A DNA stretch of 64,000 nucleotides, taken from positions 496,001 through 560,000 of the forward strand of contig NW_026250426.1 of NCBI RefSeq assembly GCF_024521635.1. Direction: 5' to 3'. The translations under genes were made by a program, and so were the position numbers. Positions 7,751-15,496 of this stretch are shown here, in pieces. Under the pieces are notes generated by a model. The model ran no database searches. It was given only the letters and a program-made list of their open reading frames with translations, and had not been told where the DNA came from. The stretch is from Tricharina praecox. Lineage: Eukaryota. Position 1 is the stretch's first letter. Every line of letters starts with the position of its first letter.

Positions 7751-9510
7751 TTACAACTCGTCCGCAGCAAAAGCAGCAGGGATACCCGCCATCTTCGCCG
7801 CAACCAATGCGATGAGTGCAGCGCCGACGCCGCTTCCGTCCTTAGCAACGCCCATCCTGACTCTCTTCTCGTTGTCGGATCCAATTTCCGGGACTTCGCG
7901 CAGTGCCTCGCGCAGATATTTCTCGAAACCGGGGTAGAACTCAACGACGCTTCCGTCCACTCCGATATCAATGACGTCCAGTTCCTCTTTGGTCTCTGCT
8001 GCGTCCTTATCGCCCTTGACTGTGGTGGTAGTGGCAGGAATATCGGCGACTGGTGGTTGGCCGCCGAAGACGCTCTTAATCGCCTGGATTCCCTGCTCGA
8101 AGAGAGACAAGTTCTGCATCGAGACGTCGAGCGATGCTGACGGCTTCACCTTTCCGGTGGCGATGAGGATCGCGGCAACGGGGACAGCAGAGAGACGCGC
8201 AGATCGCTTTCCGATAGCGTGAACGAGGATCTTCACTGCACGTGCCTCTTCGGTGGACACATGTGCGGCAGAAACACCCAATTGCTCCTCGAGCACGGAC
8301 TTGGCTGTTGCCAGGTCTTCCGAGTCGTCGGCTTCGATGTACGAGAGCACACTGGTATCCACGCTCCAGGGCGTGTTGAGGGCTGCAGTCTCTTCGATCG
8401 TAGCGGCGGAGAACAAGCCCACATCCTTCTGAAGACCGAGAATCGCGTTTCTCAAAATCTCACCCAAGAACATGCCAGAGATGCGCTTCTCGAACATCTG
8501 GATGCCAGGGTTGACAGAATTCTTGTCGAGCTGTCTATCGTAGAGGGTGTCGGGCAGAACCTGCATCGCGTTGTCGAAGGAACCCCATTCGGTGTTTACC
8601 ACCATTTCACCGGTGGATTTGTCGTATTCTCCAACACCCGAATCGGGCTTCGTCATCTTGCTAATCTTGCTGAGCTTCTCAACGTACGCTCCGTTCGTTC
8701 CGGTTCCGAAGATTGCGCCCAGCAAAGTGCCAGTCTTTCCCGGGGAAGTGTACGAGCGCGCCATGAGAGTCCCGACGGTATCGTTCACCAGAGCCGCAAC
8801 GGTGACGGGTATGCCGAGAGCATCGATTTCCTTCTGGAGGAGCTCGCAAACATCCTTTCCGATCGCATCAGCGATGTCGAAACCTTTCGTCCAGCGAATG
8901 AGATAGCCCTTGTTAACGGCCCTCTGATCGACGGGGAAAGAGAACGTGAAACCAAGCTGAAGATGGTGGTCAGCGGTTTCGGCGAAGTGGTCTCCGTGGT
9001 GCTCGTCAACGAACTCCTTCACCTGCTGGGCAAGGAACGAGAAGAGAGTGTGCGAGTCCGACGTCATCATCAATTTTGGGATCGCGGCTTTGGACTGCGT
9101 GAGAGTGAATTTGGAGTCACCGGTCAGATAGACCGAGCAAACACGGAAGTTCGTTCCTCCGAGATCGACCGCTAGGTAGACGCCCTAAAAGATTTCGACA
9201 TGAGCACGGAAATCAGAGCCCCGTTCTGAGCGTTCGGTGCAAACCTTTTCCGTTCCATTCGGGACACTAGTGACGTATGTGGGGATCATGGTCATCGCCT
9301 CGCCATCGTTCTGAAGACCAACATCTAGAGACACCCGCAATCGTCAGCGTGTTCTTCCGCAGAATTCAACAGGCGCGGAGTAAAGGGGTATTCACCCATC
9401 AGCCGCAAAAACTCCTTGACGCCCTTTCGCACATCGTCAGCGCCATACTCGAACTCCTTCGAGATGGCCTCCGCCCTCGCAATCAAAGCCGTCGAATCGA
9501 TAGGTGCCAT
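7751..9510 (-). CDS. GLK1: Glucokinase (hexokinase family), ~542 aa from ATG 9510; exons 9510-9396, 9324-9245, 9184-7751. Possible longer isoform from ATG 10158 (see findings).
   Basis: [86 protein letters not shown]; canonical introns keep the frame. Confidence 0.93.
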
Positions 9511-12500
9511 GGTGTCCTCTTTGTTGTCAATGCGTGGTTGATAAGTAGATACCGCTTTACAACAACCACTGCTGCTGCTGAATATCTCTCTTGGTTGCCT
9601 GTGCGCTGTCCAACGACTGGTTGGTTCTGGTTGTGGAGGTCTTATGCGTCGAGGGTATGCAAAACCACCACTACTACTGCCACTTGTACTGTAGCCTTCG
9701 AAGTCAAAGAAGCGGACACCGATGCCAAGGACAAGCAACGTAAGCACGACAATTCTGACGAGGGGTCGCGAGGAGGAGAACGAGAAGTAGAAGTAGAAGA
9801 AGGAAGTGATATCTTGGTCTCCGTTCGAGGTTGCAACCGACGGATCTGGCTCAAAGATATCGGGGAGAAATATGGAGGAAGATTTATGAGAGAGAGGAGG
9901 AGAAGGAGGAGAAGAAGGAGGAGAAGAAGAAGATATCTCGTCAGTCACGACAAAGGAAGATGAAGGCTCCGAGATAGTGGTGCTGGGCAGCAGATGGGGA
10001 GCATATGGAGACGGGTTGCGCGGGGCGGAAACAGTAGTGGTAGCGGTAGCGCATCGGCTTACATGTCTCTGTGACGCTCGATGACGCTGCTGGCTGGCTC
10101 CTCCCAGTGCTCCTCCACCTTTGCCTTGAGGCACTTTGTTGGATTCCCCAATCAACATCCGGTGTAACCGGCCTTCTCTCCTTCTTCCGATCGATTACTG
10201 CTGACCTCTCTTCTCGTCCGCACTTTGCTCTCTTCCACACACACCCTTACCAGGTTTCCGCAATCAGTTCACGTTTTTTTGTTTCGATAATAATGGATTC
10301 CCCAGAATCCGGTTCCCTGCAAGTGGGCTCTTGTCCGGAATCACGGTGCGAGACACACACAGGACACACACGAGACAGCCCTTTCCACACGCCGCACTTA
10401 ACCGGGGCTTGCGTTGAAAGTTTGTGTGTGTGCTACGAGCGGTTTTTGGACGGATTGGCTGTCGTCGTGCAGGGCGATGTGGTGGGGTAGAAGAGATGGG
10501 GGGCAGGAAGGGCGAAAGTGCGTGCGAGCGAATAAAAACAGATGCGGCAGAAGTGAGTATGAAGGAAGGGGTAAACGACACGTTCCGTTATCTAGAGTAG
10601 AGGATGGTGCGTACTCTACAGGCACTCTGGAGGGAGGGGAGTGAGGGAGGGATTGTCGAGTAGGAAGGGCTCAGGGAGGGAGATGGGCGGTCGAGGTAGT
10701 GAGCGGCCCGGGGGAGGGAGGGGGAGCTGTTTTTCCGGGCTTTCCAATTTGCAGTTCGCAGAGGCCACGAGCGGCCAACCAGGACAGAGACCAGCCGCAT
10801 TCGGGCTAGAAAAAAAGAAAAAACGTTTGCGGAAGTGCTGCGTCGCATGCAGATGCTGCCAAGCCGGCCAAGCCGCAGCGAGTCGCACCCACGTCTCGAT
10901 GGGGAAGGTCTCACGCAGCTGACAAGCACAAGGCAGCCGAAGCCGCCACACAGCGCTCCTCCCCCGCCGCCACCAGAACGCCAGCCAGGTGGCAACGCTA
11001 TGTACGGCTCCCTGGCCGGCCATGTGGATTCCCCGCAAAACGGGAGGTGGAGTCAGATAAGGACGTCGAGTCGGTGATCATGGGTGACATGTGCCGGATG
11101 CTGAAGACTGAATCTGCGAGCTTGATACCGTATCACGTTTCAGGGTTCAGGCGGGGACGGTGATGCCCATCTCAATCCCATTTCTTCTCGAGCTCTCCTT
11201 CACTTCCACAGGTAGCCCTACGACCAGTTCGACTCGCCAGCCGCGGAAACGTCACATCACCTGGAGCTCTCGTCGAGACCAGTTCAGCCGTCGTCAATCA
11301 CACGACTACCTCGATCTACGATCCGTAGCAAATGCGGAGCTAAAACTTGCTGTAGCTTGAACGGGGAAGTGGGCACACCCCTCCAGAAACGCCCGTGGCG
11401 CTTACGTTCAGTACAGTTGGTGGCGAAACATGTGGTTCACTGTGTGTCACTCGATTCATGCGAGGGAGACAACAGATGTCGGGGGTCATGAAGCCAGAAG
11501 GGTTGTATGCGGAGGAAATGGGTCGCTGCCTGCATAGCGCTGGATATCTGGACTGTAGACAGGACGTCTGGAGTGCGTAGGTATGCCATGATCTAGAGAG
11601 GCCGAGTGCATTAGGTACCTATGGTTGAACCTGGGTCGTAAACCATCGCGTTTTCCCTCCTGACTGCCGCGGGGTCGGATGGGCACATACCACGTTCTTT
11701 GTACCCGGTATGATTAGTTTCAAGTAAAATAGTAAACACTAGTCAGCCTTGTACCGTAGTATGTAGCCTGTGCATTCCCGGACATCAAAGCATCATCACG
11801 CCGCGCGGGGGAGGCAATGGGATGATTACTTGGTGGTTGCCACGGAGCCGGGTTGGCGGTATTGAGGGTGATACTGGTACTTGCAGGTTCCTTGGGTATC
11901 GGTGGGTCGCTGTTGGTTTATTCTCCGCATAGAAGAGCGAGTGTGAATGTGTTATGCCTATGGTTTCGGCGTCTGTGATGGGCAATTCGTCCTGGCAGCT
12001 TTATTTGTTCGAGGGCTATTCACGATCTACATGTACCTAATTACCAATATCCCTCCAAGTCTGGTATGCTCCATTCACAGCTGTTCGGACTCCAGGGCCA
12101 GCAAGACTACCCATTGACCACTGATATCCCCCAGTTGTGCCCTCTGCCACTGCTTGTTGCTAGCCAACGCCCTTCGAGGCTATTCGCAGCCGGAGAAGTC
12201 AACGGCCTCCATTCAAGCCGTGGGTATGAGGTACCTAGATGGCTAAATCAGTATCTTCCCAGGAGAAGGCTAGAAATCCTCTAGTATGGAGCAAGGAATT
12301 AACCTCGAGTCCGAGGTGAGCAATGGTGCTCAAAGTCATCATGAAGTGGCCATTGGTGCTCATAAATTATTACACTGAGAGCAATCAATGACACATAACT
12401 ACCAGCTTACCGGGGAAAACGCTATAAACCAGTGCAAGGCTGAGTGGGTGAATGAAGCCTCTGATGATTGTTGTCGTAGCCAACTGTCTTGACCGATTTC

Positions 12501-13869: not shown

Positions 13870-15387
13870 CTAATGACATATGCTCTCCTTCTTTCTCAAT
13901 TCCTCAACCCGTTCCCTCCACCCAGTAGCACCTCCCTCCCTCCGAACAACCTCCGCCACATCTACCAGGAAATTGGTCTTCCTCCTCCGGCCAATGACAG
14001 CGACATTCCTCGTGCTCGGAATCCTGAGCACCTCTCGTTCAACAACCCATCCGCACTCTCGTGCGATCCTCTCCACGTACGCACACAGACTAGCATACGT
14101 ACTCTTAGAGAGGTTCATATTCAATCTCAGATCCCCGCTCTGCTCACTCTGCAGATCCTTCGGCGGCGGAAACCGTTTCTTCGCGCCCGAAAGATCATGC
14201 GAGCAGCAGGGGATAGCAATGAAGGGGCAATTACTCGCGGCCGCCAGAATCGGCGTCCACGGCGTCAGCTCATCCGTGTGATTGGAGATGATGAACGTGC
14301 CCTCCTCGAACCGTCCATCATGTTCCCCCTTCCCCGTTTCTATGCCATCATCCATTAGATACGGCACCAACACCATCTCGCGCAGCCTCTGCCTCGTCCT
14401 TGCCTCAAACCCATCCCAGCTCTTCCTCGCCCTGGCATCGAACCCACTGCCCGTCCAGCCCTCGCGGAGGAGCACATCGACCAGCACGCCATTGCCACAG
14501 CCGATATCGACAAATCCCATCCACCCCTTCTTCTCCTTGCCCTGGTACATGCGTTCCCACAGACATATCAAGAACGTCGCGATGAGTATATCCTCAAAGA
14601 CATGTTTCCTGGGATCCGTCTTCTCCCTCCACCCGCCAACGAGGCGGGTGGCGTGCTTCGCCCGCAGCGCAAGATACCGGTCCTGGAACTCCTCGCGCGG
14701 AATCACCAGGTCGTGGTGCACGCGCTTCTCGTAGCCCGCCTCGATCCCGCCCGCAAGCTTGATCGCCCGGCTCAGCAGGTGGTGCGCCGTGCGCTCCAGC
14801 CGCACATTGTTAGGCTCGCCGTTGGCATTGAAGTAGCTGTAGAGCAGGGAGACGCAGTACTGCGTCTCATCCCCGCCGTCGTCGTCATCGCCGTCGTCGT
14901 CCGACGATGACGCGGGGAAGAGCAGCCATGCCACGCCCCGCACCTTCGGCAGGTAGTACGGCGTGCTCTCGGCGCTGTCGCAGTGGTTGAGGTATACCAC
15001 TAGCTCGCGGATCTCGCCGGAGAGCGAGGCGTGCGTGAGGAAGTGGCAGGATTGGAGGGCCGGCGCGTCGCGGTGAGGGTTGCGCGGGACGAAGCGCCGG
15101 AGGAGCGTGCGCGTGGTCGCGAATGACGGGAGTGTGATGGAGCGTGGCTGCTCGGATTCACTGGGCGTGAGTGTGTCCGACCGCAGGATCCACGACGTGT
15201 TGTGTTCGGGATGCTCGAACATTTGGTGCAGTGAGGCGAGGAAGCTCGATGGCTTGTAGGGGAAGCGGGAGGTCAGCAGCGCGCTCCATATTTGCGGCGT
15301 GTTGGTGTGGTCGAGCGCGTATAGGTCTGGGGGGTGTGGGCGTTGCGGAGGCGGTGAGGACGGACTCGGACTCGCTGGAGTCGTCAT
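13870..15387 (-). CDS. TRM44: tRNA (uracil-O2'-)-methyltransferase Trm44, 505 aa
   Basis: YEKRVHHD, TDPRKHVFED, FVDIGCGNGVLV..L..EGW.G.GFDAR.RKSW, FIISNHTDELTPW, IPCCSH, LRIPSTRN. Confidence 0.92.
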   Translation of the reverse strand: MTTPASPSPSSPPPQRPHPPDLYALDHTNTPQIWSALLTSRFPYKPSSFLASLHQMFEHPEHNTSWILRSDTLTPSESEQPRSITLPSFATTRTLLRRFVPRNPHRDAPALQSCHFLTHASLSGEIRELVVYLNHCDSAESTPYYLPKVRGVAWLLFPASSSDDDGDDDDGGDETQYCVSLLYSYFNANGEPNNVRLERTAHHLLSRAIKLAGGIEAGYEKRVHHDLVIPREEFQDRYLALRAKHATRLVGGWREKTDPRKHVFEDILIATFLICLWERMYQGKEKKGWMGFVDIGCGNGVLVDVLLREGWTGSGFDARARKSWDGFEARTRQRLREMVLVPYLMDDGIETGKGEHDGRFEEGTFIISNHTDELTPWTPILAAASNCPFIAIPCCSHDLSGAKKRFPPPKDLQSEQSGDLRLNMNLSKSTYASLCAYVERIARECGWVVEREVLRIPSTRNVAVIGRRRKTNFLVDVAEVVRREGGATGWRERVEELRKKESICH

Positions 15388-15496
15388 AGCGGTGATGTTT
15401 TACTGCTGCTGCGGGGGTTTTGGCGCGGGGGGATCAGGTCCCATCCCAACCAACCAACCACCATGGTGACACCTAGCTTTATCCTGAATACCTTCA

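Follow-up and report, generated by a model that had tools for sequence, protein, structure and literature searches.

We analysed a window of 64,000 nucleotides (nt) from Tricharina praecox (contig NW_026250426.1, positions 496,001 to 560,000 of assembly GCF_024521635.1) that carries a glucokinase gene on its minus strand, and we noticed that the reading frame of this gene stays open far upstream of its conventional start codon, ATG 9510. The open frame, its conservation in related fungi, the constraint on its codons and its presence in RNA suggest that 10158-9511 is very probably a real coding N-terminal extension, and that the gene specifies a soluble enzyme of 542 residues together with a less abundant isoform anchored in a membrane. 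The soluble enzyme would be translated from AUG 9510; the long isoform would consist of a weakly constrained Ser/Pro-rich head, one hydrophobic helix (9762-9706), a linker of 65 residues containing Pro and Cys, and the same catalytic domain. The long form would be produced from long transcripts, on which AUG 10158 comes first, and/or from a conserved in-frame GUG at 9948, and the AUG-free leader downstream of 10001 would let most scanning ribosomes reach AUG 9510. An earlier note on this DNA, made from the sequence alone, had proposed a membrane-anchored second isoform encoded upstream, with retention in the endoplasmic reticulum (ER) through a C-terminal -ADEL; the first part of that proposal gained support from RNA, conservation and constraint on the frame, and the second part gained none.

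The conventional coding sequence (CDS; 9510-9396, 9324-9244 and 9183-7751) encodes a member of the hexokinase family, of the glucokinase GlkA type: protein P0001, 100% identical to the window protein, has the domains PF00349 (Hexokinase_1) and PF03727 (Hexokinase_2), identity to glucokinases named as such in Wilcoxina, Rhizina and Tuber is 69-80%, and a search with exon 3 returned 5668 relatives. Frame 0, the frame of ATG 9510, contains no stop between TAA 10197 and this ATG, a run of 228 codons, and the minus-strand open reading frame (ORF) 10158..9325 (277 residues) leads from ATG 10158 through ATG 9510 into intron 1, confirming the earlier remark that the frame is open for 648 nt upstream of the conventional start. 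Upon dinucleotide-preserving shuffling of the 684 nt, frame 0 was open in 0 of 5000 shuffles and any frame in 0.04%, indicating that the open extension frame is beyond chance expectation. Scanning the minus strand from 10710 to 9511 revealed four ATGs only: the in-frame ATG 10158, and three out-of-frame ATGs at 10064 (ATG-TAA, 10064-10059), 10054 (37 codons, ending at 9941) and 10004 (19 codons, ending at 9945). No ATG was found between 10001 and 9511 in any frame of this strand, again as the earlier note had stated, and an ATG-free 9511-10001 arises in 1.3% of dinucleotide-preserving shuffles.

The extension begins with a Ser/Pro-rich stretch followed by a hydrophobic segment, an order that had also been recognised before; we place the segment, LVRIVVLTLLVLGIGVRFF, at 9762-9706. 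It comprises 19 residues, is directly preceded by a Pro codon (9765-9763), starts 132 residues past ATG 10158 and 62 past GTG 9948, and has homologues in the related loci L001 and L002. AlphaFold2 on the family member P0122 predicted this segment as helical (residues 60-82; predicted local distance difference test score 84-89), and predicted the head (residues 1-56) as disordered with low confidence; most of the linker was also of low confidence. We also considered whether the head might be a mitochondrial presequence: some lineages have a basic, Ser-rich head, as do the first ~65 residues in the window, but from 9948 to the helix the window is acidic. A Pfam scan of the extension in the window and its relatives gave no family above threshold.

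A scan of metagenome contigs yielded 80 loci, and a hidden Markov model of the conventional N-terminus placed the start exon in 75 of 81 sequences including the window; these 75 start exons formed 64 clusters at 95% identity, and the 57 without a contig-end cut made up the non-redundant set, in which the class labels of metagenome loci are those of the nearest named protein. Over these 57 loci the median number of open codons upstream of Met was 132 in frame 0 vs. 26 and 37 in the other frames, and frame 0 was the longest of the three in 45 (Wilcoxon 4e-7 and 4e-10), frame 0 being compared with the other two frames of the same loci. A helix with a Kyte-Doolittle (KD) value of at least 1.9 was present in 38 of the 57, its hydrophobic core measuring 17-23 residues (median 20; n = 38) and its end lying 40-94 residues (median 53) before Met. 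Five more loci (L007, L027, L035, L058 and L079) contain canonical introns of 58-66 nt that interrupt the helix, all at one conserved position, and whose removal restores the frame, and the database ORFs P0069 and P0074 have the helix in uninterrupted form. A weaker segment (KD 1.64) was seen in the Tuber-like L003, and a half-helix in an upstream segment in L067, L012 and L062; a splice search for a helix-restoring intron in L067, L012, L062, L076, L054, L074 and L004 gave none that was convincing. By nearest named reference the carriers are Pezizomycetes, Lecanoromycetes, Dothideomycetes and Leotiomycete-like, and the Orbiliomycete case is a protein match (P0058). The earlier note had suggested searching related genomes for the ORF and the membrane segment, and had held that orthologues with stops here and no such segment would speak against the idea; most loci present the contrary picture, with frame and helix both retained.

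At the protein level, 8 of the 120 listed glucokinase relatives have N-terminal extensions, and in all eight the conventional start is still a Met. Seven of them (Tuber aestivum, Drechslerella dactyloides, a Seirophora genome bin and four more proteins) include a hydrophobic 19-mer reaching a KD of at least 1.96, and the eighth begins inside such a segment. When a first profile built from extensions only was compared with longer proteins, the 11 matches at E <= 10 were without exception hexokinase-domain proteins, including those of Zasmidium, Meristemomyces, Hortaea and Friedmanniomyces; a second such profile gave six matches, all with a hexokinase domain, among them Neocucurbitaria, Setomelanomma and Paraphoma. 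A profile of the extensions of the window, L001 and L002 retrieved from 1.84 billion representatives two further proteins, both Pyronemataceae ORFs, and in P0134 the extension continues directly into exon 1. Some species, Zasmidium, Meristemomyces, Setomelanomma and Paraphoma among them, have deposited models that start upstream, under names that are uninformative. Conservation is strong in the capnodialean extension, which runs from ELPFLRELHG through a basic run, the helix, PRLP, SCP and NPFVQELYCRAP to SMALA.

Upstream of the helix, Dothideomycete-like sequences display the motifs RRTRSLP, RHHRS[HY]SDPA and ELPFL[RQ]EL[RH]G; such head motifs were seen in L026, L034, L070, L015, L017/L018, L020 and L024 and in P0121-P0124. 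Motifs of the RHHRS[HY]SDPA type resemble RRxS kinase sites and RSxSxP 14-3-3 sites, and the conserved head motifs hint that a cytosolic head may be subject to regulation.

Twenty-six of the 38 helix-bearing loci lack an in-frame ATG upstream of the helix, suggesting a non-AUG start or alternative transcripts in most relatives; in these lineages the long form would probably be initiated from near-cognate codons or from exons lying farther upstream. ATGs are depleted in every frame of the open region (49 observed vs. 167 expected over 38 loci, with none at all in 16), which is the signature of a leader that is scanned to reach a downstream start, and the AUG-free stretch before the main AUG that leaky scanning calls for is present in the window from 10001 to 9511. 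These observations bear on the alternative that the long form is the sole product, in which case ATG 9510 would be just an internal Met and glucokinase would be constitutively membrane-anchored. An extension that is open and conserved in most lineages would fit this alternative, as would the several deposited models that begin upstream. All 75 loci in which the start exon was placed nevertheless have Met at the conventional position, the depletion of ATGs between helix and Met marks a scanned leader, and the scarcity of in-frame ATGs before the helix agrees with weak initiation at a non-AUG codon and with a minor isoform; moreover, the extension has no CDS-like codon bias and is missing from Aspergillus-like loci. 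We therefore consider a sole long product unlikely.

If both forms are made, as we favour, the window offers two candidate starts for the long one. ATG 10158 is conserved in L001 at the same distance from the conventional start (-648), and the out-of-frame ATGs of L001, likewise three, all fall within -608..-497. The window, L001 and L002 (three of three DNA sequences) share GTG 9948 with a purine at -3, and its Val is invariant in five of five proteins; this codon is a candidate near-cognate start. Elsewhere, four Dothideomycete-like loci have 'ACN CTG GC' (A at -3, G at +4) directly ahead of the conserved RRTRSLP, and in two of the four there is a stop five codons upstream.

Comparison with L001, the closest relative locus (88% identical in the catalytic domain; same open frame of 228 codons, first in-frame Met at codon 12), revealed how the extension has evolved. 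All five indels within it are multiples of three (3, 3, 18, 9 and 3), and 4 of 13 are so upstream of the bounding stop. The ratio of nonsynonymous to synonymous substitution rates (omega, or dN/dS) was lowest in the helix (0.24), higher in the linker (0.50) and highest in the head (0.76). From helix to Met, the corresponding ratio of proportions (pN/pS) in frame 0 was 0.49 for window and L001, 0.38 for window and L002, and 0.385 for L001 and L002, and over the same aligned columns it was 0.83-1.44 when the frame was shifted in the same three pairs. Simulated neutral substitution at the observed rates left the frame open in 5% of simulations. Residues V71, T72, Y168, R170, R171, R173, P174, P179, T180, S181 and W183, numbered from ATG 10158, are invariant in five of five Pyronemataceae sequences. 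Judged by these ratios, the stretch from helix to Met is under frame-specific purifying selection, and the kind of comparison that the earlier note had recommended came out in favour of a coding extension there. Conservation marks 9948-9511 as what appears to be the securely coding part, and 10158-9949 is possibly coding in this lineage.

The same evidence addresses the view that the region is a non-coding 5' leader, open through a CT-rich and stop-poor composition, with the hydrophobic stretch a consequence of T-rich codons. Stops are indeed few in all frames (12 across the 684 nt vs. a mean of 23.1 expected from shuffles), the GC content of third codon positions (GC3) is unlike that of the CDS, the region upstream of the helix is near-neutral against L001, and the plus strand of the window has an antisense ORF of 228 residues (9277-9963) opposite exon 1, intron 1 and the extension. 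A mere leader, however, would not be expected to remain open in a frame that no shuffle kept open, to have its long frame specifically in frame 0 in 45 of 57 relatives, to vary in length by multiples of three only, to have a clearly low pN/pS in frame 0 alone, to contain helix-splitting introns that restore the frame in five loci, or to yield extension-only profiles that match glucokinases alone among billions of proteins. Nor does the antisense strand account for the conservation: only 4 of 38 loci keep an antisense frame open across the full extension, an antisense gene was rejected as its cause, and the antisense ORF is a compositional by-product. We regard a non-coding leader as highly improbable.

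RNA over the extension was examined in assembled contigs from two small runs (X1 and X2) and in partial contigs from two metatranscriptomes (X3 and X4), a kind of data that tells no transcript ends, strand or levels. The X1 and X2 contigs are RNA-derived because both CDS introns (71 and 60 nt) are removed in them. One X2 contig is colinear over 9396-10532 and runs through the full extension without a splice; an X1 contig extends from 9938 to 10621, where it passes into Illumina adapter sequence, and another X2 contig spans 10503-10659. The extension is thus present in spliced RNA, colinear with the CDS. No splice joint was observed anywhere in the leader in the RNA contigs examined, indicating that these contigs contain no product of splicing from the GTAAGC at 10062. 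Removal of the region as an intron of the 5' untranslated region (UTR) from this donor (10062-10057), which the earlier note had named as a finding that would overturn its proposal, was accordingly rejected: the contigs run straight through. Contigs of X3 and X4 contain parts of the gene and leader, reaching 9755 and 9830, and are uninformative about RNA farther upstream. The X1 contigs break at 9887-9937, with a depth of 1882 downstream vs. 118 upstream (a property of contigs, not a measure of level); break and step together give a hint of a second, proximal start. The 3' UTR of a neighbouring gene is an unlikely source of the RNA over 9938-10659, the nearest large minus-strand ORF (13870-15399) being 3 kilobases off. 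Just past the upstream limit of the RNA contigs lies a long CT-rich tract with ccctccctcc repeats (10625-10770, minus strand), which looks like a pyrimidine-rich fungal core promoter for the long transcript.

A single hydrophobic segment of membrane-spanning length (17-23 residues, predicted helical) is what is expected of a signal anchor, and we quantified the charges that flank it. Over 38 loci the mean charge was +2.58 in the N-flank and +1.00 in the C-flank; the N-flank was more positive in 27 loci, less in 5 and equal in 6 (p = 1e-5), and in the window the values were +1 and -2, respectively. According to the positive-inside rule, the more positive flank stays cytosolic. With the N-flank more positive, the N-terminus is predicted to lie on the cytosolic (or matrix) side and the catalytic domain on the other side, which would be the lumen of the secretory pathway or the mitochondrial intermembrane space. 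This family-wide bias agrees with the weak preference for a non-cytosolic catalytic domain that the earlier note had read from the flanks in the window. A broader proposal, that most filamentous ascomycetes make a type II-like anchored glucokinase from near-cognate starts within what is annotated as 5' UTR, with a non-cytosolic catalytic domain and a head perhaps regulated via RRxS / RSxSxP-type motifs, is one we put forward as a tentative possibility, with more doubt than confidence.

The charge polarity would also suit a signal-anchored form whose catalytic domain resides in the ER lumen and is retained by -ADEL through the K/HDEL receptor. The protein does end in AFAADEL, as had been pointed out, and this end is like K/HDEL-type ER retrieval signals; it differs from them in being unconserved in any relative examined. 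Among 65 loci with a readable C-terminus, a DEL ending is found in the window only, and among 133 proteins in two, both from the species of the window; the closest relatives end in -AVEL (L001) and -ADGL (P0005), and others in -NVPS, -IPSSD, -VEVS and -MQYSQ. Confinement to one species leaves the ER-retrieval reading without support, and by its distribution -ADEL is a lineage-specific accident. Since the anchor, unlike -ADEL, is conserved across classes, and since a membrane-anchored protein needs no retrieval signal of soluble cargo, retention by -ADEL is very unlikely.

Several observations weigh against the coding extension and the anchored isoform that we favour. Upstream of the helix, the substitutions relative to L001 lack a codon-position pattern (34/34/32), in keeping with the omega of 0.76 there. 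The context of ATG 10158 is weak, and L002 and L003 do not have this codon. The far-upstream part of the close relative P0135 appears in another frame, suggesting that residues 10158 to about 9950 may not be functional protein. The GC3 of the extension is 0.42-0.49 vs. 0.68 in exon 3, with no codon bias of the kind seen in a CDS. The RNA contigs cannot give transcript ends, strand or levels, and the positive-inside rule is a statistical tendency only. Finally, 10 of the 57 loci are without a helix-bearing extension, including three Aspergillus-like ones. In L042, L046 and L075, whose nearest named reference is Aspergillus glucokinase at 75-78% identity, the frame stays open for just 26, 3 and 44 codons, respectively, and a hydrophobic segment is missing. 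This pattern suggests that the extension was lost in the Aspergillus-like lineage, and such a loss may explain why it escaped notice in model Aspergilli. Three others of the ten helix-less loci have at most 50% identity to any named reference.

Table 1. Elements of the glucokinase gene and its upstream frame (positions within the window).
Feature	Positions	Strand	Basis
Farthest upstream reach of gene-colinear RNA contigs, candidate distal 5' end	10621..10659	-	X1, X2 contigs
In-frame TAA, upstream bound of open frame	10195..10197	-	sequence
In-frame ATG, weak context caccggATGt	10156..10158	-	first ATG of transcripts starting 10710-10158
Three out-of-frame upstream ATGs with short ORFs	9941..10064	-	sequence
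In-frame GTG (V71), candidate near-cognate start; upstream edge of block conserved in five Pyronemataceae	9946..9948	-	conservation
CT-rich tract coding Ser/Pro-rich run	9890..9940	-	18-nt indel vs. L001 at 9890
Hydrophobic transmembrane-type segment LVRIVVLTLLVLGIGVRFF	9706..9762	-	KD 19-mer mean 2.32
Linker, 65 codons, helix to conventional Met; motifs YPRRIRP, PTSRW, PREIF, GCCK..TY.P	9511..9705	-	conservation
Exon 1 of conventional CDS from ATG 9510	9396..9510	-	splice joining 9396 to 9324; NCBI-sourced model P0002 starts MAPIDS
Intron 1, 71 nt, GT..AG	9325..9395	-	71 nt skipped in X1, X2, X3 contigs
Exon 2	9244..9324	-	RNA contigs
Intron 2, 60 nt, GT..AG	9184..9243	-	60 nt skipped in X1, X2, X3 contigs
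Exon 3, hexokinase_1 and hexokinase_2 domains, stop TAA 7753-7751	7751..9183	-	similarity to relatives
C-terminal codons A-D-E-L (protein end AFAADEL)	7754..7765	-	sequence

The best named match to the window protein is P0002, a Tricharina praecox (Pezizomycetes, Pyronemataceae) model of 502 residues with the same MAPIDS start and -ADEL end and a listed identity of 92%. It is without ~40 residues (VSMQNLSLFEQGIQAIK...VKGDK) that run uninterrupted in exon 3 of the window (8010-8130, minus strand), and residues homologous to this gap occur in Wilcoxina, Pyronema and Geopyxis; the gap is probably a false intron taken out by the gene model. Capnodialean glucokinases (P0093, P0094, P0109, P0110, P0121, P0122, P0124, P0125 and P0127) have an extra C-terminal tail ending in ..F[FI]Q..L..[IL]NR.[IL]R.RV, which AlphaFold2 predicts as helical (P0122 residues 667-683). 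The nearest upstream neighbour on the same strand is a frame of 509 codons with a DIGCGNG-type motif (13870-15399), possibly a methyltransferase gene.

Glucokinase is a core enzyme of sugar entry to glycolysis and of glucose signalling in fungi, and is treated as soluble and cytosolic. If an anchored isoform does exist across Pezizomycetes, Orbiliomycetes, Lecanoromycetes, Dothideomycetes and Leotiomycete-like fungi, most gene models for this enzyme would be incomplete, and hexose phosphorylation in these fungi would have an unrecognised spatial dimension. The gene would then be a clean, testable case of isoforms made by alternative or non-AUG initiation, for which losses, such as those in the three Aspergillus-like loci, would give a natural comparison. 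Should the catalytic domain be non-cytosolic, these fungi would have a compartmentalised hexose-phosphorylating activity absent from current metabolic models. Long AUG-free in-frame leaders would be worth screening for hidden targeting signals.

Anchored hexokinases and cryptic N-terminal extensions are both known kinds; what would be new is a membrane-anchored isoform of a fungal glucokinase, of which our search of the full-text literature found no earlier description. The mammalian HK1 and HK2 have an N-terminal hydrophobic helix. In plant type-B hexokinases the anchor stands at the extreme N-terminus with basic residues after it, whereas the fungal helix ends 40-94 residues short of the conventional Met and follows a variable head, with the N-flank more positive and, in the window, an acidic C-flank. 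The plant analogy drawn in the earlier note therefore holds for function and fails for anchor position and charge polarity. Nor did we find homology of the fungal anchor to plant anchors, the extension profiles matching fungal glucokinases only. As described for plants, type-B hexokinases such as Physcomitrella PpHxk2 have an N-terminal membrane anchor (PMC3045890), and they share with the case proposed for fungi a hexokinase-family domain tethered by a single N-terminal hydrophobic segment and the occurrence of soluble and anchored forms in one organism; in plants these forms come from different genes, and in the fungal case they are proposed to be isoforms of one gene.

Two reports on fungi provide the nearer precedents, and the main text of neither mentions hexokinase or glucokinase (PMC7214817; PMC5487733). 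For fungal 6-phosphogluconate dehydrogenase, a cryptic PTS2 in the annotated 5' UTR, translated from a non-AUG start, is reported to give a peroxisomal isoform, with initiation at AGG AUU demonstrated by experiment (Kremp et al., 2020, PMC7214817). The likeness to glucokinase lies in a fungal sugar enzyme with a conserved in-frame signal upstream of the AUG and in a minor, relocated isoform, which for glucokinase is a proposal; the signal there is a PTS2, and in glucokinase it is a predicted transmembrane helix with a linker. In the transcription factor cpc-1 of Pezizomycotina, an N-terminal extension is reported to bypass control by an upstream ORF (2017, PMC5487733). That case comes from the same taxon and likewise has a conserved, in-frame and stop-free extension, near-cognate codons in good context and gene models that disagree on the start; the cpc-1 extension is without a membrane segment, unlike the one that we describe here for glucokinase.

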